The notes under the pieces: generated by a model
Told to the model about the DNA's origin: nothing
What the model saw: only the letters and a program-made list of their open reading frames with translations
The model's database searches: none
Source of the DNA: Mugilogobius chulae
Taxonomy: Eukaryota
Length of the DNA stretch: 29,681 nucleotides
Assembly (NCBI GenBank): GCA_046056395.1
Contig: CM100125.1
Span: forward strand, 45,175,895 to 45,205,575
Direction: 5' to 3'
Part shown: piece after piece, positions 1-29,123 of the stretch
How the letters are laid out: every line of letters starts with the position of its first letter
Numbering within the stretch: position 1 is the stretch's first letter
Program-made: the position numbers and the translations under genes

Positions 1-103
1 TACCATCTAAGATTACCCATACTAATTCTGCATTGTGACAACACTTCTAGAAACATTATACTATAGTCTGAATGACCAGTGAAAATGTAAACATGAGTGG
101 TAC

Positions 104-287
104 CATAAATTCGGACTGAAGTCTAGGTGTGTTGTGGACTCCATGCACACTGTCATGACCTTCGGGGCCTGGGTCAGACTCAGGTCTTTCTTTAGGAGGT
201 CCTTGCAACGCCCCCAAAGCTACATCACAAACCAACAGCAATCGAGATCCGTCTGTAGAACTGCACTGGGAATATTTTAAAGCAGTT
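104..287 (-). CDS. PARP1-like exon L (ADP-ribosyltransferase domain). Product reads ...TALKYSQCSSTDGSRLLLVCDVALGALQGPPKERPESDPGPEGHDSVHGVHNTPRLQSEFM. The gene continues beyond the window start.
   Basis: Minus-strand acceptor tgtgtttacag at 288-289. The translation aligns with the PARP1 catalytic-domain stretch '[31 protein letters not shown]' through KYSQ...LLVCDVALGAL. The frame stays open to a stop at 56-58, but a donor ATG|gtacca at 102-103, or CTG|gtcatt a little further on, is more likely. The catalytic Glu (YNEYIVYD) is not reached inside the window. Confidence 0.55.
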
Positions 288-482
288 CTGTAAACACAAA
301 AAGGATTGTAGAAGTCATGTTAGTTATATAGAGAGCATGTTGCAATGACTTTATTTAAATAATTGAGGCACACTTTTTAAACACCTAGCTAGAAACTACT
401 ATGCATATTTCTTAGTGGTTGTTTTAATATTAATTCGTTTTTTTCAGCTTTTATCAATGCTTTACCTTTTTTGCATGATATA

Positions 483-498: not shown

Positions 499-821
499 AA
501 TGTAGCCACAATGGGGCACAAGCCAGTGTCTTATTGTGCCGGTCCAAGCCCGATAAATACAGAGGGTTGTGTCAGGAAGGGCATCGATGTAAAATTTTTT
601 GCCAAATCAAATATGCGAATCGAAACTAGTCTTTCATACCGGATCGGTCGAGGCCCGGGTTAACAACGACCGCCATCGGAGCTGTTCACTTACAGGGTGC
701 CGGTGGAAATTGGACTACTGTAGGTCGAAGAAGGAGAGGAGGAAGGTGTGTTCGTAGGAAGAGAGAGAAGAGGAACGCCAAGAGTATAGGACTGAGAGTA
801 GGGAGTTTAAATGTTGGAACT

Positions 822-1574
822 ATGACAGGAAAAGGTAGAGAGATAGTTGATATGATGCAGAGGAGGAAGGTAGACATATTGTGTGTTCAAGAGACCAGGT
901 GGAAAGGTAGCAAGGCTAGAAGTTTAGGAGCAGGGTTCAAGTTGTTTTATCATGGTGTAGATGGGAAGAGAAATGGAGTAGGGGTTATTTTAAAGGAGGA
1001 GTTTGTTAGGAATGTCCTGGAGGTAAAAAGAGTGTCAGACAGAGTGATGAGCCTGAGACTAGAAATTGAAGGTGTGATGTTCAATGTTGTTAGTGGATAT
1101 GCTCCACAGGTAGGATGTGAACTGGAGGAAAAGGAGAAATTTTGGTCGGACCTTGATGAAGTGATGCAGAACATCCCTAGAAGTGAGAGAGTTGTAATTG
1201 GGGCAGACTTCAATGGACATGTTGGTGCAGGAAACAGAAATGATGAGGATGTGATGGGCAGATTTGGTATCCAGGAGAGGAACGCAGAAGGACAAATGGT
1301 GGTTGACTTTGCAAAAAGAATGGAAATGGCTGTAGTAAATACTTTCTTCCAGAAGAGACAGGAACATATAGTAACCTATAAGAGTGGAGGTAGGGCCACA
1401 CAGATAGACTACATCTTGTGTAGACGATGTAACCTGAAGGAGATCAGTGACTGCAAAGTAGTGGTAGGGGAGAGTGTAGCCAGACAGCATAGGATGGTGG
1501 TGTGTAGGATGACTCTGGTAGTGAAGAAGATAAAGAGGGCAAAGGCAGAGCAGAGGACGAAATGGGGAAGCTAA
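822..1574 (+). pseudogene. LINE ORF2 apurinic/apyrimidinic-like endonuclease domain, truncated by a stop.
   Basis: The 250-aa ORF carries the EEP-fold motifs typical of LINE endonucleases. Confidence 0.85.
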
Positions 1575-1838
1575 AAAAGGAAGAGTGTTGCATGACTTTT
1601 AGACAAGAGCTGAGACAGGCTCTGGGGTGGGTCAGGAGCAGCTTCCAGATGACTGGACAACTACAGCTAATGTAATCAGGGAGACAGGCAGGAGAACACT
1701 TGGGTGTCATCTGGTAGGAAAGTTGATAGGGAGACTTGGTGTGGAATGAGGAGGTGCAGGATGTATACAGAGAAAGAGGTTAGCTAAGAAGAAGCGAGAT
1801 GCTGAGGGGACTGAAGAGAGAGACAGGAGTACAGGGAG

Positions 1839-3009
1839 ATGCAGCGCAAGGGAAATAGAGGTGGCAAAGGCCAAACAAGGGCTTATGATGAGTTGTATAC
1901 TAGATTGAACAGTAAAGAGGGAGAAACTGATCTATACAGATTGGCAAGGCAGAGAGACAGAGATGGGAAGGATGTGCAGCAGGTCAGGGTGATTAAAGAT
2001 AGGAATGGAAATGTGTTGACAGATGCCAGTAGTGTGATGGGAAGATGGAAAGAATATTTTGAAGAGTTGATGAATGAGGAAAATGACAGAGAACAAAGAG
2101 TAGAAGAGGTGACTGTTGTAAATCAGGAATACCAAAGATTAGTAAGGGAGAAGTAAGGAGTGCATTGAAGAGGATGAAGAGTGGAAAGGCACTTGGCCCT
2201 GATGATATACCTGTGGAGGTATGGAAATGTCTAGGAGAGGTAGCAGTAGAGTTTCTGACTGGGTTGTTTAACAGGATCTTAGATGGTGAGAAGATGCCTG
2301 AAGAATGGAGGAGAAGTGTGCTGGTGCCCATTTTTAAAAATAAGGGAGATGTGCAGAGTTGCACCAACTATAGAGGAATAAAGCTGATGAGCCATACAAT
2401 GAAGTTATGGGAACGAGTAGTTGAAGCAAGATTACGGGCTGAAGTGAGCATTTGTGAGCAGCAGTATGGTTTCATGCCAAAAAAGAGCACTACAGATGCA
2501 GTATTTGCATTGAGAATGTTGATAGAGAAGTATCGGGAAGGACAGAAGGAGCTGCATTGTGTCTTTGTAGATCTAGAGAAAGCTTATGACAGGGTACCCA
2601 GAGAGGAACTGTGGTATTGTATGAGGAAGTCTGGAGTGGCAGAGAAGTATGTTAGAGTGGCGCAGGACATGTATAAGGATTGTAAGACAGTGGTGAGGTG
2701 TGCTGTGGGCGTGACAGAGGAGTTCAGTGTGGAGGTGGGACTGCATCAGGGATCAGCTCTGAGTCCCTTCTTGTTTGCTATGGTGATGGACAGGCTTACA
2801 GACGAGGTTAGGCAGGAATCTCCATGGACTATGATGTTGCAGATGACATTGTGATATGCATGAATGCAGGGAACATGTGGAGGAGCAGCTTGAGAGTTGG
2901 AGGTTTGCCTGGAAAGGAGAGGATGAAGGTTAGCCGCAGCAAGACGGAGTACATGTGTGTGAATGAGAGCGACCCAAGTGGAAGATTAGGTTACAGGGAG
3001 AAGAGATAA
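1839..3009 (+). pseudogene. LINE reverse-transcriptase domain, split across three frames (1839-2156, 2165-2854, 2824-3009).
   Basis: RT motifs are present, including the YXDD box (YDVADD) in the third frame. Frameshifts between the three pieces show this is a dead copy. Confidence 0.85.
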
Positions 3010-3605
3010 AGAAGGTGAGGATTTTAATACTTAGGGTCAACAGTCCAGAGCAATGGAGAGTGTGGAAAGAGGTGAAGAAGCGTGTGCAGGCAGGTTGGAA
3101 CGGGTGGAGAAAAGTGCAGGTGTGATATGTGATAGAAGAGTTTCAGCTAAAATGAAAGGAAAGGTGTATAAACTGTGGTGAGACCAGCAATGTTGTTTGG
3201 CCTAGAGACAGTGCCACTGAGAAAAAGACAGGAGGCAGAGCTGGAGTAGCAGAGATGAAGATGCTGAGGTTCTCTTTGGGAGGACCAGGATAGACAGAAT
3301 CAGGAATGAGATCATTAGAGGTACAACACATGTTAGAGGTATTGGAGATAAAGTCAGAGAGGCCAGACTGAGATGGTTGGACATGTTCAGAGAAGAAATA
3401 GGAATATATTGGTAAAAGAATGCTGAGTTTGAGCTGCCAGCAGGAGACCTAGAGGAAGACCGAGGAGGAGGTTCATGGATGTGGTGAAAGAGGACATGAA
3501 GGTAGTTGGAGGAAAGAAGAGGATGCAGAAGATCGGTTAGATGGAGAAGTTTGATTCGCTGTGGTGACCCCTGAAGGGAAAAAGCCGAAAGGAAAAGAAG
3601 AAGAA

Positions 3606-7394: not shown

Positions 7395-8099
7395 CTGCAA
7401 AAACACAGAATGTAAGTTGAGGTGGGCAGATTATGAACCAATATTGAACTGTCATATTGTGATTCATGATGTTGTTTTGAAGATATACTAAGGGTAGGAG
7501 ACAGTAACCCCCCAGAAAGCTACCACAAGAATACGATTGGACTGAAAATTTGGACACTAAGATAATACATCATAGTTATTCAAATATTTATAAAAGTAAA
7601 CTATCAAACCTCTGGGCATGTTAAAGATAAAAAGTAAACTTACTTCATGTCAAGTCGCTAAAACACTCTTTCTGTGAGATTACCTCTTACTTTTGAAAAC
7701 AAATTGTGACAGAACATGCTCAAACTATGGTCTTTATTGCCAAGGCATGAACAGGAGACAGCCTTAGTCAGGCTTTTTAGGGAAAACAGGCCCAGATGTT
7801 AAGAGATTAAAGAAGGCACTCAATTGCTAATTTCAGTCGTACAATTTATAATTCATTTTTAGATCATAAACAAGTACTGCTTTTTAACTAGGCTACTGCT
7901 TGTCAAAATTTATTAATTCCTTTTTGTACAAGGAATAAGTAACTTACGAATAAAAACTTCCCAAAAAGGTATGAATAATGTTGTTTGAAACTTGTTATTG
8001 TAAAAATGAATTTAGTCAGTATTGCACTAATCGTAGATGTGGTTAGATTTTATGTAACTACTGCATTGTATTGTGTTTTGTCTCCCTTTTTTGATTTAC

Positions 8100-10269: not shown

Positions 10270-10695
10270 GGTTACGCTAGACTTTCTTTATGCCGGTCAA
10301 ATTCCGGTCAATTGGGAGAACAACCGGTCACATTTTATTGCCTTATGCAAACAACTGCACGTGAATTTTGGCAGTAACCTACTTGCTTTCGCCTGCTCTA
10401 CAGTCTCTATTTCTAAAGCTAAAATTGGTCATTGTTAGTGAAGTGTCCATAACTTTTACTCATCAGCGCGAGCCTTGTCTATAGTTTCTTAACCCGAAAA
10501 GCGGCCGGACTGACCACACAACGAACTAATGTGAAATTATCATTAACTAGTCTACAGTAAATCATGTATCATTCCTCATTTTTCTTCGACTTTTTATTTT
10601 TTCACCTATTATTTCTGCCGGTCAAGCTGACCGGGGACGTCTATTTTTTCTGATCAACGGCACATTTTACCGGCCAAAGACCGGCTAACGTAACC
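10270..10695. mobile_element. Roughly 425-bp MITE-like DNA transposon in PARP-like intron 1. Its terminal inverted repeats are GGTTACGCTAG / CTAACGTAACC, with sub-terminal CCGGTCA repeats.
   Basis: The left end ggttacgctag (10270-10280) pairs with the reverse complement of ctaacgtaacc (10685-10695). A ccggtca/tgaccgg motif recurs at about 10293, 10304, 10326, 10618 and 10670. Confidence 0.5.
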
Positions 10696-10972
10696 GCTGA
10701 CAATTACAAAACAGCAGCAATACTGTTAGTTTAAACAACGAAACCTAATGAAATGACTGCTTAAATTAAGAGTACACAGTAATATCATATATGACAGAGG
10801 TCACCAAACCTTTTGCAAAACAAAACTGATGGTGAGCTACTACTTTTAGCAATAAAATGTTTTTAAGTTAATCAGGTCACAGTTAGACTGGCCATTGTCT
10901 ATTTAGAAGTTGACAAGATTGGGCAAAAACAGGCATGTATCATACATAAAATTTGATTAACAAATTGTGTAC

Positions 10973-11100
10973 CTGTTTATTTGGCACATACGACATGTTC
11001 CCTCCATTATCCGTAACTGCGAACTTGATCTTTTTCTTCTCTTTAAATGACAAACCCCTGAGCTCGAACAGCACAGAGCAGTCCTGGAACAGAGCCATGT
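10973..11100 (-). CDS. PARP1-like exon A (start-codon exon, BRCT N-terminal half). Product MALFQDCSVLFELRGLSFKEKKKIKFAVTDNGGNMSYVPNKQ. ATG at 11098-11096.
   Basis: Donor CAG|gtacac. The ATG lies 2 nt after an acceptor tttcttcag (AG at 11101-11102), so a 5' UTR or coding exon further upstream is likely. The translation aligns with PARP1 BRCT start '[41 protein letters not shown]'. The frame is open upstream to 11167. Confidence 0.6.
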
Positions 11101-11460
11101 CTGAAGAAAGAAGAGACACATGAGCACAGTAACATGTGTAGTCCTTAATAACAACCCCAATGTACAAATTAATGTTGGCAAAATCTCAGAAGGTGGGCAA
11201 AACCTGTACAGGTCTATGGGAAATTTGGTTTATGGAAGCAATGACCACAATATGAACAGTTGACGAACAACAGTTGACCCTTATTATTATTTGTCATTAG
11301 TGAGTTCACAATCTCATGGCTTTAGGTTTTTTGTTTTAGGCATAATTTAACTTACTGACACGATTTGCCACTAGAATAAGCAAGTGCTTATCATTTCCTT
11401 ATTTAAAGTAAAACTACATATTTTACATCTGTTGTTCCATCAGCAAATTAGATCTTACTG

Positions 11461-12457
11461 GGAATTTACACCAGGAGCTGCAGCAGCACGTAACTGCAGC
11501 AGCACGTCATACGCGCGTATTTTCAAAAGCTTCAATCTCCACTAGACGCGTCAGTGCTGCTCCAATAACGCGAGCCTGAGCATCTACACACATGAATAAA
11601 CCAAAAAACTGCTCCATATTATGAACGAGGAAGAGCCTAAAACTGTGAATCAGAGGTGCGGTGTTCATTAACAGGCCGCGGTGTTGCATTTGCATATTTT
11701 ACATCAGGGCTTTTTGCCTACTTCACGTTGTACTAAGAACCTTAATTGTTCTTCTATTTCTCACACCGTCCCGCAAATAATAGCGTAGGATTTCTCTCGC
11801 CTGCTCTCTCATCCACGTGCACGCGCATTGGCACCCCAACAGGCACGCGCGGCACCGAGAAGAGCAGCTGGAGGGAGAGCAGACCCGCCGGGGAGAAAAA
11901 AAGACGTAGGTACGGCTAAAACGGCTCATATAAAGCGATTGTGAGCAGAGGGAACAGCGTTGTTTTCACAAACGCGTTCGTTACATGTTCAGCTGTAAAA
12001 TGATGTGTGGTTTAAAACAGTCTGACGCATATTCATGGAGAAAAGAGTCTCATAAGGACGTGATTTAAAGAAATCAGAAAGTTTGCAATGTTCACGGTCG
12101 TTAACGGCCGTTCACGGAGCTTCTGGGCACGGTACATGTTGTTTTAGTGGCTGTAATCTTTGTAGTTGACGTATTTTGAAAGGGCATCGTACTTTATTTT
12201 GTCTCTGCGCGGCTTTTTCTTGTGTTTTTCCTGCTAAAAAGCCCGGGAGACTGGTAAATTAGAAGTCCGTCCTATTTTGAACGACGCGTAGCGTATTGAC
12301 GGCCGTCAGACGGCCGTCAGACGCGCGTCTCACACTTCTGGTGTAAATTGTCAGAACCAAATCAGACTTGATTCCATTATGAGCGTATCCTGCGCGTATG
12401 ACGGCCGTATGACGTGCTGCTGCAGTTACGCGCTGCTACAGCTTTGGTGTAAATTGG
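11461..12457. mobile_element. Roughly 1 kb CpG-rich non-autonomous DNA transposon with terminal inverted repeats of about 55 bp and sub-terminal direct repeats.
   Basis: The left terminus aatttacaccaggagctgcagcagcacgtaactgcagcagcacgtcatacgcgcg (11463-11517) pairs with the reverse complement of cgcgtatgacggccgtatgacgtgctgctgcagttacgcgctgctacagctttggtgtaaatt (12390-12455). Internal repeats gtcagacggccgtcagacg and cgtatgacggccgtatgacg are present. There is no long ORF, so the element is non-autonomous. Confidence 0.7.
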
Positions 12458-12463
12458 GGGTTA

Positions 12464-12816
12464 TGGTGCGTTCCAGGCAACTGGGAACTGGTATATGTGC
12501 CACCTCCCACTTGTAAAAATGCGCTGGAACGCCACTCGAACTGGTTAATCCCACTTGTGAACTGGGACCTGGTCGAGGAAGCCCCACTTCACATACGAGT
12601 TCAACAATAACCAAAAAAATTATTGAGGGGTTTAACTGACGCAAAAACAATGTAAACATTGATTACAGGTTATTTACCGTTACTTTTGATTAGCCTAAAG
12701 GTTAGCATTAGCCATAATGTTTACATACGAGTTGATTACGTTGGAACGCTCTGAACTGGGAACTGGTACTTTTAAAGTGAGAAATGTCCCAGTTCCCAGT
12801 TGCCTGGAACGCAGCA
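12464..12816. mobile_element. 353-bp PIF/Harbinger-like (Tourist-type) MITE flanked by a TTA target-site duplication.
   Basis: The left terminal inverted repeat tggtgcgttccaggcaactgggaactgg (12464-12491) pairs with the reverse complement of ccagttcccagttgcctggaacgcagca (12789-12816). TTA is found at 12461-12463 and again at 12817-12819. Internal copies ctggaacgccactcgaactgg and ctgaactgggaactgg are present. Confidence 0.7.
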
Positions 12817-14074
12817 TTAGGACAGTCAAAACTAGATGAAAATTTCAAGGTCTTATAAACTTGTTGCTTTAAGTAAAATGGTACATTTTTTCCAGTGTAC
12901 TTTAAATTTGGCCAATTTGTTGGGTTATAAGAAGCACACATACACGGCTGCACCAGGCACCATAATAGATCCATGGGCTGCACTTACTGTAAGCATGAAA
13001 CATAACAGAGCTATTACACTGAGGTGTCATTTCCTGAACAGGAAACGCGGAAGCAACTTATTTGGATCCAAAATCTATGCAGCAGATTTGACAAAGACAT
13101 AAAATTCGTAATGTCTGCTCTAACTATCTCATAGCACTAGTTTTTGCCAAGTTTATAGATTTAAATAGTGAATAAAATATTACTGCAAAAGCGAGTCACC
13201 AGAATTGGCAAGTTATCAGCACAAGTCACGTTTCAAGTTATATTTACGTCTCATAAATAAACAGTATTGATAAAAGTTGGTTTGTGATATAGAAAAATGA
13301 CGGACACACCTGTATTTGACCCGTGCTGCTCTGCATTCGCCTTCGGGTGCTGTCTGAGGTCTGTCCCGTCGATTTTGTTGTTGTAAAGTGAATGTGTTGT
13401 GCAGGAGGAGTGAGCTTTTCAAAATAAAAGCTGGTGCATTTAACGACACAGTTCTAGGAATTAAATATGACATTTAATTTACTAGCAACAGACGTTACTT
13501 TCAGATATATTTAATGTAATATGCACAAGTTTAAGACTACCGGCCAAGCAGCATGTTGCTAGCTTATTACAATCTTTTATTTTGAAACTAACGTCAATGT
13601 TGCGCTGCTCCAGATCTGAAAGAACTTGACCAGCCCCGACAAGTTAAACAACTCTGCTGTTCTTCTCTTTTCTTCTCTTTCAATTGCAAAGTCATGTGGT
13701 TTGATAATTACTGACAGTTACAAGTATCCTTGCATTTACTTAATTCACTTTTTCCAGTGTCTTCTCAGAGTAAATAATACTCTCTCACTTTTTTATTTTT
13801 CCATTGTGAGTAGGCCTAAATCAATATTTACAAAAGGAAACCATGCAACAAATCATGAATGTGGATGAAATTGTTGTACATGTGTTGATAATTTATGATT
13901 GTATGAAACTGTACACTAGACTAGATAATGACCAAAACATCTGCCATAGGACAGAACACCTTTGGACTCATCATTCTTCTGCACCAGTATTTTAGGACAA
14001 GACGATGTTCATCTTTAAAAAGCACGTGTAGGACTGTAATCACTCAAGGCATGCTCCAGTGTTGTGGTCTAAAA

Positions 14075-14250
14075 ACTTGGGGTAGCTATTTTTTTAATTT
14101 TAAAATAGTAAATGTTATCTTTTGCACTAAAACAGTAAATGCAGCACTTTGTGAAAAAGTTAGACCACTGAGTGCTTTCTAATGTGAATCATTTTCTAAT
14201 CAGGAACCAATGATTCTGATTGGCTGTGCTTGAGTGGCCCTCTCCAGTTT
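14075..14250. repeat. Interspersed repeat of unknown family, copy B.
   Basis: It matches 3968-4160 in the same orientation. Confidence 0.6.
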
Positions 14251-14817
14251 CATTGTGCTGTTTGTAAAAACACATTTATTGACTATAATCACAACCAAAA
14301 TGAATTGATATTATATATGTGCTGAAGGGTTTATGCGAGGAAGTTGTCAGATGTAAAACATACATCGTGTTTGCATTGTTAAAATCAGCTACCCCATCTT
14401 TAATGAACCAAACAGCCTTCACAATTCTGCAACAGCAGTTTATACAGAAAAGTAACAGAAAACAATGTATGTTTCATGCAGTTCATACTTATTCAGTTTA
14501 TGTATGCAAGCTTGGTTGGTTGTACTGATCCCCTTTATACATTTTTAATCGCTAATTAATCGATTAATACTTGCTTAGAACTCATTAACAATTTTACCTG
14601 CTCTTGTTGTGAATACTGCTGCTTTTCTGTCCTTTGCCAGTACCATATTATTATTATAGTATATGTATTTAAATATTTTTCCATTAATAAATCAAATACA
14701 ATGCAGCAAAGTGACAATTAGAAAATCATGAATAGACTATTAAGGTAGAGTTCAGGTCAGGTGAACATAATTAGATTGTTCTATCTTTGTTTTTTAACTT
14801 AGGCCTATAAAGCAGCA

Positions 14818-14880
14818 GGCTGTGTGTGTGTGTTTGTGGGTGTGTGCAACATGTGCGTGTGTGTTTGTGTGTATGTGCTG
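14818..14880. repeat. Imperfect (TG)n/(GT)n microsatellite.
   Basis: tgtgtgtgtgtgtttgtgggtgtgtgcaacatgtgcgtgtgtgtttgtgtgtatgtg. Confidence 0.9.
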
Positions 14881-16290
14881 CAGCCACGGTAACAGGGGCA
14901 CACACAGTACCACCTTAAACAAGCCTAGCAACAGAGATTAAGCCCAAACACCTCCTGTCAGGCTGGCTAAAGAACTCATCCATTAAAAGTAAAGGTGTGT
15001 TTTGTGGCCCTGCTTTTGTCACAGACTTGCAGAGGTTTTGATGCTGTCGACAGAGAATCACATGAAGGATTTGCCTCTGTCAGTGCTGAGTCGAGGATGT
15101 GCTCAGTTTGTCCAATGTGAGGGGAAACAAAATGGACGACTGGATGTATGCTTCACACCAGAGGTACAACTCCTACACTGATTTATAGGTTTTACTTTTT
15201 GATTAGTCGCAGCATAATTTAATTGTACTTGGAACGTTCATTTGATTCCAATTACATATTATGCAAAACTGACTTTATTGAGTGTTTAATCTTGTTCTAA
15301 CTTTGCTTCTTCATCAAAAACACAGATAAGTTTTGCCTGTGAGATACTAATCTTTTCCCTCTAAGCCTCAGAAAACACTTGTCTGAATTTCTCAAATGTG
15401 TAATGTCATAGTTACATCTCTGAGATCTTCTGCACTGTTTTTAAGCTCATAAATCATTGACTTGCTATAGGAGCATTTCTGCATCATTAGCATATCAGGC
15501 AAGGTCAGTTTGATTATTTCCCCTGTGTCATTTCCCTTGCAGCCATTAGATGGAGCTCTAACTCAATTTCTGATTTGAGAAACACTTTCATTTGTGCTTT
15601 ACTACACAACACTTTTTATCGTTTCTGTGCATTGGATTACAAAGTGGGTGTCTATGTTTAACGAATGACAATACAGTAATCCAAATAATTTACCCTTTAA
15701 TACTGATTGAACAAGGCAGTTAAATGTCTTATTTTATTATTCATTTCTATTTTGGTGTGAATTCTGGAAGCTGTGAATATTAAATTAAAGTTTAATCATA
15801 AACATTATGACCTCTAAATACCACTTTCTTTGCAGGTTATGTATGCTTTAATGAATAATATTTAAATGATTTTACACTCTTCTTCACACTGCAGGATTAC
15901 TACATTTGGAAGGCACACGGCCCTTTACTGCGTCTGTCCACCAGTGGCTGCGTTTTCACAGAACCAGAGTCGCTCTCCCTAAAACCTTCAGCACACGCAG
16001 AGGCGCACTGCTGCTGTACTCTCAGGTATTATGGCTTCGTGAAAAAGTTTTACATAGAAAAACTGTAAATATATGTGAACTACATTGTACTCTCAGGGTC
16101 TGGCAAATTCTTATGATGGAAAAGACTATGGACAGTGCAGTGCTCAGTCATTTCAGCAGGAAGAAAACATCTCTATAAAGCTACCACAGTCTGTTCTGAA
16201 CCACAGTGGAGTACATGTAAGACAAACATTTAAGTTTACCTATTCCGCTTCAGCCTTTTTCAACAAACTGTTCTTATTAGGAAAGCAACC

Positions 16291-26381: not shown

Positions 26382-26922
26382 ATGGATGTGAGCATTGCTG
26401 TTTCGCTGATTCGGGGACAGATGGGTGCTGTGGTGGAGCGAGCGGTCAACGGAGCAGTGGAGACTGTACTGGCTGAGATGCTCAAAGTTGTTGGGGGGAA
26501 ATTTGAAGAGCTAAAATCCCAAGTGGCGGTGATGAAGAGAGAGATGGTCCTCAAGGAGAAAGAGAATGAGAACATGAGGGCAAAACTGCGTTACACTGAA
26601 CTCAAGCTGAAGTATTATCGACAGGGAGTGGAGGAGGAGCTACAGCAGCACGTGTCCGCCGCGGCTCTCTCACACATGTACACACCCACAGGACAAGTCA
26701 CAGGACAGAGAGCGGCTCCTGGGTTTTCACAGTCAAACACAGCAGCACCCTCTTGCTCTGGTCAGACCAGGACCAAAACTACAAGCACGTCTCCTCAGAC
26801 CAGCGGGCGTCACAGTGGGAGAGTGCAGGGACATTCTGATGTGTGTGGAACCAGTTCTAACGCACCAGACATGATGCAGTCTCTAATGAGCACATCCACT
26901 GAGTCTCTGGACAACAGCACAG
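26382..26922 (+). CDS. Fish ZNF-family-like nuclear protein gene, first coding exon: MDVSIAVSLIRGQMGAVVERAVNGAVETVLAEMLKVVGGKFEELKSQVAVMKREMVLKEKENENMRAKLRYTELKLKYYRQGVEEELQQH...STG. In-frame Met codons further upstream (26310) are possible.
   Basis: The open frame is 180 aa with donor ACAG|gtaacatg. The N-terminal block AVVERAVNGAVETVLAEML...FEEL resembles the N-terminal domain found on many teleost-specific C2H2 zinc-finger genes (pattern ..ERL.aAaEEIf..F...I.EYEEEL). This is memory-based. Confidence 0.5.
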
Positions 26923-27036
26923 GTAACATGCTGTCCAAGATGTGGCAAACTTTTTGAATTTGAATTTTAAATATCCAGGACAATTAAAGCCTATGAACAT
27001 TATTATGTCCAAGTCTAGCTGTTCAGACTACAATTA

Positions 27037-27236
27037 CCGTCATTTCTGGATTATAAGACGCTACTTTTTTCACAAGCTTTGAACTATGCGGCTTATAAGG
27101 CAATGCAGCAAAATTATAGATTCTCATAGACTTACTATTAACAAGTGCGGCCTATATATGTACTTTATCACTTTTCTTTCTTAAATCTAGTGGGTGCGGC
27201 TTATATTCAGGTGCGCCCAATAGGGCAGAAATTACA
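27037..27236. mobile_element. Tc1/mariner-like MITE, copy 2, same orientation, flanked by TA.
   Basis: It matches 18364-18565 almost base for base (ccgtcatttctggattataagacgctacttttttcacaagctttgaac...gggcagaaattacag). TA flanks it at 27035-27036 and 27237-27238. Confidence 0.7.
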
Positions 27237-27625
27237 GTACTAGAATCATAATAGTTAAATCATTACCATTGCCATTAGATTTGTGGTTTATGTTTTAATT
27301 TAGAATTTAGTTCAAACTTCACTTGTTAAATATGCCTGGAGAGAAGACAAACAAAACTGAAATAGGTCAATAAACTGACAAACTAATAAAAGAATTCTTT
27401 GTGTTCAGAACATGACCCTCAAGTCATACATTGATTTAGATTTGATTGTGATACATTTTCCTGCTCTTATGTTACATAATTTATAAACTGGGCATACAAA
27501 CTAGATTAGCTAGGGAGAGAGTATATTTGTCTTTTTCCTTTCACAATAAATTGCAAGAAAACTGTATGTAACATTTGTATAAAGGTGAAAATCACCAATC
27601 ACAGTCCTGTCTTTTGTTGAAACAG

Positions 27626-27830
27626 GACTGAATCAAGACTCCTCTGTAAATAATTCAGAAGAGCAGAAACTTGAATGGACCATCGCTCTACAGTCAAACA
27701 CAGAAGGAGGGCCATACCAGGTTTCCAGACCCTCTCGTTTGAGTCAGAGCAACAGTCGACCACAGGCTCCACCACCTCGGAAGTATCAGCTCATGCAGAC
27801 AGCTCCACACTGCCCTGCTCACCTCCACAG
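27626..27830 (+). CDS. Same gene, exon 2: (G)LNQDSSVNNSEEQKLEWTIALQSNTEGGPYQVSRPSRLSQSNSRPQAPPPRKYQLMQTAPHCPAHLH(R).
   Basis: The acceptor ttgttgaaacag is in the phase left by the first exon. This is the only open frame. The strong donor CACAG|gtaatgtg leaves phase 2, which does not match the next exon. An alternative weak donor CAG|gtttcc at about 27719 would fit. Confidence 0.35.
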
Positions 27831-28049
27831 GTAATGTGACAATATTAAGCATGCTCCAGAATGTTGATATACTGAACTATCTTGGAGTCTATCTTGGACT
27901 CTGAGACACTGGCCTTTACTCGTACTGTGCTAAAATCTTTTCTTGCTGTGTCTTTTAAAAGCTTATGATTGTTCTGTAAAGCACTTGTCTTACGTTATCC
28001 ACCAATTGGGTAATACATTTTGCTTGCTTGCTAGAAGTGTGTCTTGTTG

Positions 28050-28330
28050 TGTTGAAGTTTTTTTTTTTTTTTTTTTTTTATTAAAAGGACATCAATATAA
28101 AGTTACCATAATTCCATTATACATAATCTAATAAGGTAAAAAGAAGATATACATTAATGCATAATAATGAATAATTACAATTTAACATAATTCATAATAA
28201 TAATAATTCATACTAATAATATTCATATTAATACATAGGACATAACAAACCAAAAACAAACAAACAAAAAACAACAACAAAACAATTATAACCAAAAATA
28301 AAAAATAAAAAATGGGGATACAATAATACT
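28050..28330. repeat. Poly-T tract of 23 T followed by an A/T-rich low-complexity block with AATAAT and ACAAAC units.
   Basis: Simple-sequence composition, read directly. Confidence 0.85.
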
Positions 28331-28425
28331 TTTTTTTTTATTTTATTTCATTCTAGACAGATGCTAATGCTAAAGTCAGTTAAGCCTGTTTCCAGCCACT
28401 GACATTTTAATCTGTTGTGTTGAAG

Positions 28426-28548
28426 GTTAAGCAGGAGCCACAACCAGATGATGAGGTCATCTATATCAAAGAGGAACCAGAGGCAGAGCAAGATGGGACC
28501 TCCATGTTTGATTGCCAGGTGCTTCCAGATTGTAAACCAGAGTCAAAG
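28426..28548 (+). CDS. Same gene: VKQEPQPDDEVIYIKEEPEAEQDGTSMFDCQVLPDCKPESK.
   Basis: Acceptor tctgttgtgttgaag and donor AAAG|gtaagaaac. The 'VKQE..EEPE' acidic exon is typical of teleost ZNF-family N-terminal regions. Confidence 0.5.
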
Positions 28549-28680
28549 GTAAGAAACTTCATTAAGGCCACATTTACTGTAGTTTTTAGTTTGCACTTTA
28601 ATCCTAATGTCTTATTACACCGACTAATAGATTTCAATGTACTGTAGATACAATTGATTAATAACACATATAATTATTAG

Positions 28681-28762
28681 GTTCCAAGAAATGGAGCTGA
28701 TTGGTCAGAACCACAGACCAGTGGAATAAATGCATCGAGCAGTTCATCTGGCTCAACCATCT
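28681..28762 (+). CDS. Same gene: VPRNGADWSEPQTSGINASSSSSGSTI(C/S).
   Basis: Acceptor taattattag and donor ATCT|gtgagtat. Phase 0 into phase 1. Confidence 0.45.
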
Positions 28763-28843
28763 GTGAGTATCTTTTCATCCAGACCCATTTTATAAAGTGT
28801 ATTAAATATTACTCAATACTAATCAGTTGAATTACCTTTCTAG

Positions 28844-29046
28844 CTATAATGTCCCAGCTAGCCGCATCTATGTCCCCCTCAATGTCAGCCTCTTCATTCA
28901 GCGCCTTTAATCAGCACCCCTGGTCTAGACGAGTTCTCGGTTTACCTGAGGAATACAAAAAACACAGAAAGGAGCAGCAAAGGCGGAGCTGGATGAAATG
29001 CAGAGAGCAGGAGAAGACTCTTCCTCAACCTCAGCTCTCGGAGATA
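28844..29046 (+). CDS. Same gene: (S)IMSQLAASMSPSMSASSFSAFNQHPWSRRVLGLPEEYKKHRKEQQRRSWMKCREQEKTLPQPQLSEI.
   Basis: Acceptor attacctttctag and donor GATA|gtaaga. It matches ORF 28849-29094. Confidence 0.5.
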
Positions 29047-29123
29047 GTAAGAAAAAACAAACCCAAAGACATTAAAGGTTATAGAAAGATTTAAAACAAC
29101 TATTCTGTACATTTGTTTTGCAG

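Follow-up and report, generated by a model that had tools for sequence, protein, structure and literature searches.

The locus

The window, meaning the whole stretch of 29,681 nucleotides of Mugilogobius chulae DNA analysed here, contains PARP4 on the minus strand and a homologue of KIAA2012 on the plus strand. The two genes are arranged head to head, with 3.96 kb between their ATG codons.

10973..11098, minus strand: first coding exon of PARP4 (MALFQDCSVLFELRGLSFKEKKK...NKQ), with the ATG at 11098
11099..11112, minus strand: PARP4 splice acceptor, ttctttcttcag/ac, directly 5' of the ATG, its position conserved in four teleosts
15062..15163, plus strand: first coding exon of the KIAA2012/DUF4670 homologue, the head-to-head neighbour of PARP4

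The peptide encoded by the PARP4 exon is 57-62% identical to the N-termini of PARP4 from Notothenia, Hippocampus, and Coregonus, and at the nucleotide level the exon is 80% identical to that of Knipowitschia. PARP4 fragments in the protein database reach at most about 63% identity to the PARP4 of the window, so none comes from M. chulae or a close relative, and the exon 1 peptide alone as query gave no match. On the other side of the spacer, the KIAA2012 exon is 91% identical to the N-terminus of Knipowitschia protein P0041, with matches to DUF4670, and the exons downstream match M. chulae protein P0037 at about 100%.

The sequence-only reading of this DNA placed a splice acceptor just before the PARP4 ATG, and comparison bears this out: a pyrimidine tract and AG stand exactly 2 nt 5' of the ATG in the window and in Notothenia, Coregonus, and Knipowitschia. 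With the acceptor conserved, a non-coding exon must lie upstream. Since the KIAA2012 homologue begins head to head at 15062, the PARP4 start site has to fall within about 3.9 kb, and 1.35 kb of that interval is occupied by two elements, 8 bp apart, that lie 365 to 1721 bp upstream of the ATG.

Two elements upstream of PARP4

The coordinates given in the sequence-only reading all stand. The features of the two elements are as follows, where TIR stands for terminal inverted repeat.

11463..12455: element 1, 993 bp, to judge by its TIR pair a non-autonomous transposon with long TIRs, carrying a CpG-rich tract
11463..11518, plus strand: left TIR of element 1, with two copies of CTGCAGCAGCACGT(A/C)A and one CGTCATACG unit
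12390..12455, minus strand: right TIR of element 1, differing from the left arm by one additional 11-bp CGTCATACGGC unit and by a deletion of 1 nt
12293..12349, minus strand: additional internal copy of the element 1 terminus (CTTCTGGTGTAAATT), with 1 mismatch, preceded by 11-bp GACGGCCGTCA repeats
11700..12330: CpG-dense core of element 1, 47 CpG, observed/expected 1.32
12461..12463: TTA, left target-site duplication of element 2, read from the sequence
12464..12816: element 2, a putative MITE, 353 bp, with TIRs of 28-29 nt and three copies of the subterminal repeat AACTGGGAACTGG
12817..12819: TTA, right target-site duplication of element 2, likewise read from the sequence

Element 1 had been described as bounded by TIRs of about 55 bp, and so it is. 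It begins with AATTTACACCAGGAG at 11463 and ends with GGTGTAAATT at 12455. An inverted-repeat search pairs arms of 43 nt that are 91% complementary, and blastn extends the pairing to 51 nt (92%, 71.6 bits), with 47 of the 51 positions matching, a gap of 1 nt, and sharp boundaries. As a null I used 200 first-order Markov shuffles of positions 10800-13500, in which the top-scoring inverted repeat reached 26.0 +/- 3.8 bits and never more than 39.2; the TIR pair of element 1 (71.6 bits) and that of element 2 (49.1 bits) each exceeded all 200 of the 200. The internal block at 12293..12349, which includes a tandem repeat (12298-12329), may be a second right end in variant form or a block of subterminal binding sites. 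Element 1 has no ORF longer than 80 aa, and six-frame translations of both elements found no matches in a database of 5.8 billion proteins. At its borders the sequence reads ctGGG/AATTTACACC...GGTGTAAATT/GGGgg, and which target-site duplication is seen depends on where the ends are placed: GGG (3 bp), AATT (4 bp), and TA (2 bp) all fit, while neither an 8-bp duplication, as for hAT, nor a TTAA duplication fits these flanks.

Element 2, reported as a TTA-flanked Tourist-like MITE at 12464-12816, holds up in its structure. TTA stands on both sides, with no extension to 4 bp possible, and the 24-nt core of the TIR, GCGTTCCAGGCAACTGGGAACTGG, is exact in both arms, where 0 chance matches are expected. 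By blastn the arms match over 29 nt with one mismatch (96.6%, 49.1 bits). The only ORFs are short ones that cross the borders of the element. A 3-bp duplication of the TWA type, TIRs, small size, and lack of coding capacity are features that fit a PIF/Harbinger (Tourist-like) MITE. To describe the element instead with a 2-bp TA duplication, of the Stowaway or Tc1-mariner type, is strictly still admissible, if less parsimonious than TTA.

From their structure, with one copy of each at hand, I infer that elements 1 and 2 are two independent non-autonomous cut-and-paste DNA transposons. Both contain subterminal arrays of short repeats of the type typical for the binding sites of transposases or accessory proteins. 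Self-BLAST found no further copies of either element in the 29.7-kb window. Exact scans with the TIR cores of viral, metagenome, and bacterial-archaeal collections, which hold essentially no fish DNA, turned up only three chance microbial matches of 20-23 nt, and a literature search with the inverted-repeat strings turned up only unrelated Staphylococcus primers. One might argue from this single occurrence, from the lack of copies in the DNA collections searched, and from the lack of an unambiguous target-site duplication at element 1 that mobile elements are not the source of the inverted repeats, which would be local inverted duplications, palindromes, or artefacts of assembly. Local inversions do occur at this locus, as judged by a 606-nt, 99% inverted duplication in the orthologous spacer of Knipowitschia. 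However, the absence of copies is uninformative, given how little fish DNA the collections hold, and local inversion would have to account for two different and unrelated inverted-repeat pairs, each with sharp ends, for the exact TTA duplication around element 2, for the subterminal direct-repeat arrays in both elements, and for a composition of element 1 unlike that of its flanks. I give this explanation hardly any credence.

The sequence-only reading had proposed a comparison with the orthologous locus of a related species that lacks the insertions. Such a locus exists in Knipowitschia, whose spacer has no counterpart of either element, but the flanks of element 1 do not align there either, and no empty site can be read. 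Sensitive blastn of the M. chulae spacer against the upstream regions of Knipowitschia, Notothenia, and Coregonus found a single conserved block, 14820-14952, adjoining the KIAA2012 start.

The window has no RNA genes, as judged by Rfam at gathering threshold and by tRNA scans. A mir-15 candidate on the left inverted repeat of element 1 was rejected: it scored 19.6 bits against a threshold of 57.3, its source was a AGCAGCACGTAA motif, and shuffled sequence folds just as well as the local hairpin (z = -0.35). A scan of the window for bacterial promoters and terminators was set aside as not applicable to a fish genome.

The CpG-rich tract belongs to element 1

The stretch that looks at first glance like the promoter of PARP4 had been assigned wholly to a transposon, and the distribution of CpG agrees. 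The observed/expected ratio of 1.32 in the core, and of 1.23 in the whole of element 1 (68 CpG), compares with 0.18 in 11099-11462, 0.38 in 12820-15061, and 0.44 in the window. Element 1 holds 68 of the 110 CpGs in the spacer between PARP4 and KIAA2012. When CpG islands are defined by a length of at least 200 bp, GC of at least 50%, and CpG observed/expected of at least 0.6, only two stretches of the spacer pass: 11653-12041, wholly in element 1, and 12205-12618, which begins in element 1 and extends into the MITE. The CpG-island-like tract is the body of element 1, not unique promoter DNA.

There is no excess of TpG in element 1 (ratio 1.03 versus 1.22 in the window). CpG so free of decay suggests that the element is either young or unmethylated. 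Undecayed CpG would also be expected of a functioning unmethylated promoter.

Then there is another CpG-rich MITE-like element, with a ratio of 1.21, within a PARP4 intron at about 10271-10697, so CpG richness is not specific to promoters in the M. chulae genome. Upstream of PARP4 in other teleosts, Notothenia has no CpG cluster within 6 kb and the rest have only modest ones; there is thus no reason to expect a CpG island at the PARP4 promoter.

Where PARP4 may begin

I propose, with a probability of roughly 0.6, that both elements are passengers. DNA transposons tend to insert in accessible chromatin at the 5' ends of genes. Elements 1 and 2 would have landed in such chromatin at the 5' end of PARP4 and would now form part of its 5'-UTR intron, while the non-coding exon 1 would lie upstream of both:

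13310..13400, minus strand: candidate non-coding exon 1 of PARP4 (5' limit guessed), with donor CAG/GTGTGT and the intron starting at 13309

Donors were scored with a rough consensus matrix, by which the real PARP4 donors of the window reach no more than about -1 to 4.6. In the sense of PARP4, the spacer has its best donor at 13309, upstream of both elements, with a score of 6.3. No other site on the minus strand of 11113-15100 scores 5 or more, and among all GT sites in the window the one at 13309 is in the highest 0.4%. The elements themselves contain weak donors only, at 0.7-2.3 by this crude matrix, a range that overlaps that of real PARP4 donors. The candidate exon is accompanied by a local cluster of CpG (6 in 121 bp). 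Without the two elements, some 850 bp would separate the donor at 13309 from the ATG, a distance similar to that of the modest CpG clusters found 700-1200 bp upstream in Coregonus and Knipowitschia. To be set against the passenger reading are the single copy of each element, the ambiguous target-site duplication of element 1, and a candidate exon (13310-13400) that is not conserved in Knipowitschia.

An alternative view, put forward by the sequence-only reading, is that the promoter or a 5'-UTR exon is derived from a transposon. The pieces of that proposal are real (two adjacent elements, a transposon-borne CpG tract, a true acceptor), but support for the elements as the source of a promoter or exon has not appeared, nor has a refutation. 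PARP4 would start inside the CpG-rich and presumably unmethylated body of element 1, or just downstream with the left end of the element serving as proximal promoter, and its 5'-UTR exon would be partly or wholly transposon-derived. Within the 3.96-kb spacer, CpG-island-like DNA is confined to element 1, except that one of the two stretches continues into the MITE, and the CpGs of element 1 show no sign of decay. CGTCA/TGACG, E-box, and CCAAT motifs abound in element 1, and on the plus strand of its core are found an E-box (11814-11819), ATTGG (11827-11831), and TATAAAG (11929-11935). The core also contains GTTCACGGCC repeats at 12090-12117. Usable-looking donors on the minus strand score within the range of real PARP4 donors: 11766 (ACG/GTGTGA) and 11591 (CAT/GTGTGT), both about 2, and 11458 (CCA/GTAAGA), 5 nt past the left end of element 1, with 1.4. 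Since real PARP4 donors score so low, any of these three weak ones could be used. However, the E-box/CCAAT/TATA layout lies on the strand opposite to PARP4 and points away from it, and looks like a promoter module of the element's own; a much better donor is available upstream of both elements; the regions upstream of teleost PARP4 genes are not CpG islands; and a second CpG-rich transposon-like element lies in a PARP4 intron. I consider the idea doubtful. A stronger version, that element 1 gave PARP4 in Mugilogobius a CpG-island-like, unmethylated promoter and first exon that replaced or supplemented a CpG-poor ancestral one, and that the element may belong to a Harbinger3-like family with a palindromic target of the ACACCWGGTGT type, I consider unlikely.

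A start inside the elements and a start beyond them were the two options initially recognized, and a third was missed: exon 1 could be short and fit between the acceptor and element 1, in 11113-11462 (for example, with donor TCA/GTAAGT at 11355). In that case the ancestral core promoter would occupy about 11400-11460, and the two elements, inserted just upstream of it, would not be transcribed. Donor-like sites do occur at 11355 and 11458, and in Knipowitschia a GTAAGT donor precedes the ATG by only about 230 bp, with another at -446 beside a modest CpG cluster, so short first introns occur in gobies. Yet 11099-11462 is AT-rich, very poor in CpG (observed/expected 0.18), and without similarity to Knipowitschia, and its donors score only 0.7-1.4. 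A short exon 1 seems to me quite improbable.

Relation to known systems

Element 2 resembles Tourist-like MITEs of the PIF/Harbinger group, such as mPing of rice, in being short and non-coding, with TIRs, subterminal repeats, and an exact 3-bp duplication of TTA, but its sequence resembles none of the named families tested. No autonomous partner is known. Its position is also reminiscent of mPing: it precedes a start codon by about 1.4-1.7 kb, and mPing prefers such 5' positions.

For element 1 the closest likeness is to Harbinger3_DR, a PIF/Harbinger element of zebrafish with a Myb-like accessory protein, and its short derivatives, with which it has in common long inverted ends and short direct repeats containing ACGG (GACGGCCGTCA, GTTCACGGCC, TAACGG). 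The array of ACGG repeats is of a kind that, by analogy, a Myb/SANT-like accessory protein could bind. The target consensus of Harbinger3_DR is AAACACCWGGTCTTT (PMC3016246), and the outer 12 nt of element 1, AATTTACACCAG, share ACACCWGG with it, which is a resemblance of motif only. The CWG duplication is not intact at element 1, which has CAG on the left and TTG on the right, and the element contains no gene for a transposase or Myb-like protein; the likeness was drawn by motif and not by the full Harbinger3_DR sequence.

Element 1 also invites comparison with transposons exapted as promoters or 5'-UTR exons, in that a CpG- and motif-rich transposon sits between a conserved 5'-UTR acceptor and a neighbouring gene, but its promoter-like motifs face the other way. 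A caution for annotation follows: in transposon-rich fish genomes, a CpG-island-like tract beside a first coding exon can be wholly transposon-borne, and such a tract is not to be taken for a promoter without transcript data.

Of the M. chulae genome, 15.6% is DNA transposon sequence (PMC7782490), and goby genomes show an enrichment of these transposons inside genes and in the 5 kb preceding start codons (PMC12415946). Two transposons upstream of PARP4 are an ordinary situation in a genome so rich in them. Should element 1 prove to initiate transcription of PARP4, it would add a further case of promoter co-option from a DNA transposon, in line with the enrichment of such transposons reported for goby regulatory regions (PMC12415946), and would leave current understanding unchanged.

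The PARP4 locus

At 37% GC, with CpG at 0.44 of its expected frequency, the window fits a vertebrate genome. PARP4 is encoded on the minus strand from 11098 downward. The peptide of its ATG exon is 57-62% identical to the PARP4 N-termini of Notothenia, Hippocampus and Coregonus, and more exons follow, reaching position 59. On the plus strand, a KIAA2012/DUF4670 homologue spans roughly 15-25 kb. Its exons are about 100% identical to the M. chulae protein WMY93_013908, which places the window in this species, the yellowstripe goby, or in a nearly identical one. Because the first coding exon of this neighbour lies at 15062-15163, the two genes stand head-to-head, 3,963 bp from ATG to ATG. The arrangement is identical in Knipowitschia caucasica (orthologous locus L006), with a spacer of 5.15 kb.

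Coding exons on either side of the spacer
10973-11098, minus strand: PARP4 exon, translation MALFQDCSVLFELRGLSFKEKKKIKFAVTDNGGNMSYVPNKQ
15062-15163, plus strand: first coding exon of the KIAA2012 homologue, with 91% identity to the orthologue of Knipowitschia caucasica at its N-terminus

The gene model for WMY93_013908 starts with MEQQESQCE at ~16446, while the conserved first coding exon, MKDLPLSVLSRGCAQFVQCEGKQNGRLDVCFTPE, sits 1.4 kb upstream and further conserved coding blocks occupy 15883-16279. The model seems to lack the 5' end of the gene.

Two transposons in the spacer

The coordinates that the sequence-only reading gave for the two insertions are correct throughout, as judged by repeat alignments and end sequences. 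Element 1 begins at 11463 with AATTTACACCAGGAG and finishes at 12455 with ...GGTGTAAATT. The two arms can be aligned for 51 nt at 92% if a 1-nt gap is allowed (71.6 bits), and an ungapped repeat search pairs 43 nt at 91%. Element 2 (12464-12816) has TTA on both sides (12461-12463 and 12817-12819) and inverted repeats of 28-29 nt, the two arms sharing an exact 24-nt core, GCGTTCCAGGCAACTGGGAACTGG, where chance predicts 0 matches; the element also carries three copies of AACTGGGAACTGG and two of TCCCACTTGTRAA. The TTA duplication and inverted repeats lie where a Tourist-like MITE had been claimed, and by its structure element 2 is a textbook MITE, of the PIF/Harbinger (Tourist-like) type. When 10800-13500 was shuffled 200 times under a Markov model, the top inverted repeat scored 26.0 bits on average (sd 3.8, maximum 39.2), and the terminal repeats of both element 1 and element 2 (49.1 bits) exceed all 200. 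It is very hard to believe that the two are not transposons at all.

Element 1 contains no open reading frame above 80 aa, and a translated search of the protein database with it found no match. Its ends are made of short direct repeats: CTGCAGCAGCACGT(A/C)A twice, and CGTCATACGGC units once on the left and twice on the right. The outermost 15 nt (CTTCTGGTGTAAATT) recur internally at 12335-12349, preceded by 2.4-2.9 copies of GACGGCCGTCA, and 2.8 copies of GTTCACGGCC lie at 12090-12117. The binding sites of transposases or accessory proteins in class II elements look like such arrays of short repeats, and those of element 1 may be of this kind. In this single copy, target-site duplications of GGG, AATT and TA are all compatible, and neither an 8-bp nor a TTAA duplication fits. 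By its structure, element 1 is a non-autonomous class II element with long TIRs. Its ACGG-rich arrays point towards Harbinger, and it shares the string ACACCWGG with the Harbinger3_DR target consensus (PMC3016246), both of which are leads rather than tests. Elements 1 and 2 belong to known transposon classes. DNA transposons account for 15.6% of the genome of M. chulae (PMC7782490), and goby genes, as well as the 5 kb upstream of their start codons, are enriched in them (PMC12415946), so a pair of insertions by the 5' end of a gene is to be expected.

A mir-15 candidate at 11486-11575 was rejected: it scores 19.6 bits against an Rfam gathering score of 57.3, arises from the TIR motif AGCAGCACGTAA, and its hairpin does not exceed shuffled sequence in stability. 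The left TIR (11473-11513) shares an exact 19-nt string, AGGAGCTGCAGCAGCACGT, with L006 39365-39406, which lies in the third gene of the Knipowitschia locus, within a coding exon (42 nt, 86%, E = 1.5e-5). In M. chulae the corresponding exon (26635-26653) agrees with the string at 18/19 positions. The similarity is probably a coincidence of CAG-rich sequences.

The CpG island is carried by the transposons

The dense stretch at about 11700-12330, previously placed inside a transposon, holds 47 CpG at an observed/expected ratio of 1.32 (1.23 for the entire element), and the flanks of the element are depleted (0.18 for 11099-11462 and 0.38 for 12820-15061). The spacer has 110 CpGs, 68 of them in element 1 and 12 in the MITE. 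Only two stretches of the spacer qualify as CpG islands by the classical 200-bp criteria: 11653-12041, entirely within element 1, and 12205-12618, which begins in element 1 and extends into the MITE. The island is transposon-borne, as had been suggested. The TpG ratio of element 1 is 1.03 (window, 1.22); its CpGs have not decayed, and it is therefore young or unmethylated.

A third, MITE-like element lies at ~10271-10697 inside a PARP4 intron, with ends GGTTACGCTAG... and ...CTAACGTAACC, subterminal CCGGTCA repeats and a CpG ratio of 1.21. CpG richness is thus a trait of some transposons here and not the mark of a promoter.

Where PARP4 begins

The acceptor ttctttcttcag/ac immediately precedes the PARP4 ATG, as the sequence-only reading had seen. 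A pyrimidine tract and AG stand exactly 2 nt before the ATG in Notothenia (ctcctcaaag/gc), Coregonus (ccttcaacag/ca) and Knipowitschia (cttgttgtag/aa) as well. The shared position of the acceptor implies that the 5'-UTR intron is old in teleost PARP4. Elsewhere the upstream sequences of these species are unalignable with the window. Exon 1 has to be sought between 11113 and about 15000.

I propose, with a probability of roughly 0.6, that both elements are intronic or promoter-proximal passengers and that PARP4 starts upstream of them, where a donor at 13309 would mark a candidate exon. This site, CAG/GTGTGT, is the only minus-strand donor in the spacer to score at least 5 on a crude consensus matrix (top 0.4% of all GT sites), and it is upstream of both elements, within which donors score 0.7-2.3. 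The ranking does no more than tilt the balance, given so rough a matrix, on which the real donors of PARP4 range from -1 to 4.6. A small CpG cluster at 13300-13420 (6 CpG, ratio 0.78) is comparable in strength to those that Coregonus and Knipowitschia have 700-1200 bp upstream of the ATG. With both elements removed, 13309 would be about 850 bp from the ATG. Notothenia PARP4 has no CpG cluster within 6 kb upstream, and teleost PARP4, to judge from these sequences, probably does without a strong CpG island. What speaks against a start upstream of the elements is that the candidate exon at 13.3 kb is not conserved in Knipowitschia.

The idea put forward earlier, that element 1 provides the PARP4 promoter or an exon, is a candidate but a minority possibility, and I consider it unlikely. 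Undecayed CpG is also what one would expect of a working, unmethylated promoter. However, the promoter-like motifs of element 1 face the wrong way:

11814-11819, plus strand: E-box
11827-11831, plus strand: ATTGG
11929-11935, plus strand: TATAAAG

If these are the element's own promoter, it faces increasing coordinates and leads away from the ATG of PARP4. The best donor and the small CpG cluster at 13300-13420 both lie outside the elements, and comparable CpG richness is found in the intronic MITE-like element. A short exon 1 squeezed between the acceptor and element 1 is less probable still.

Comparison with Knipowitschia

No more than two parts of the Knipowitschia spacer match the window: the ATG exon of PARP4, and a block at 14820-14952 that adjoins the KIAA2012 start. 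The spacer contains nothing matching element 1 or 2, so the two species do not share the insertions; the flanks are unalignable too, and no empty site can be read. The block, 80% identical, is the only conserved non-coding part of the spacer and is made up of a TG microsatellite (14821-14877) and, after it, GCAGCCACGGTAAC. The latter resembles an RFX X-box, which I presume would suit the promoter of the cilia-related KIAA2012. The PARP4 upstream region of Knipowitschia has, about 200 bp from the ATG exon, the start of a 606-nt inverted duplication (L006 5056-5661 and 6574-7179; 99% identity, arms 912 nt apart), and a 23-bp tandem repeat, ACTTCAAAATAAAAGCACAGCAG, at 7540-8010.

Other features of the window

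A third gene (26382-29100, plus strand) begins with an N-terminal coiled-coil exon (MDVSIAVSLIRGQMGAVVERAVNG...) in which no Pfam domain was found. Unnamed proteins from Coryphaenoides, Polymixia and a Logan transcript are homologous to it, and in Knipowitschia the gene keeps its place in the locus. A putative non-LTR retrotransposon (LINE), assigned by reading its translation, lies at 630-3400 (plus strand) inside a PARP4 intron. Its long open reading frames resemble endonuclease and reverse transcriptase, its GC skew is strong (about 0.5) and its 5' end (502-846) is rich in CpG. The PARP catalytic exon at ~100-290 (minus strand) translates in frame as ALGALQGPPKERPESDPGPEGHDSVHG, while its +1 frame, RCKDLLKKDLSLTQAPK, matches the LCKNVHKRDLTLTQAP of orthologues. 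This points to a compensated double frameshift or to a pair of indels in the assembly, one of which falls in a GGGGG run.
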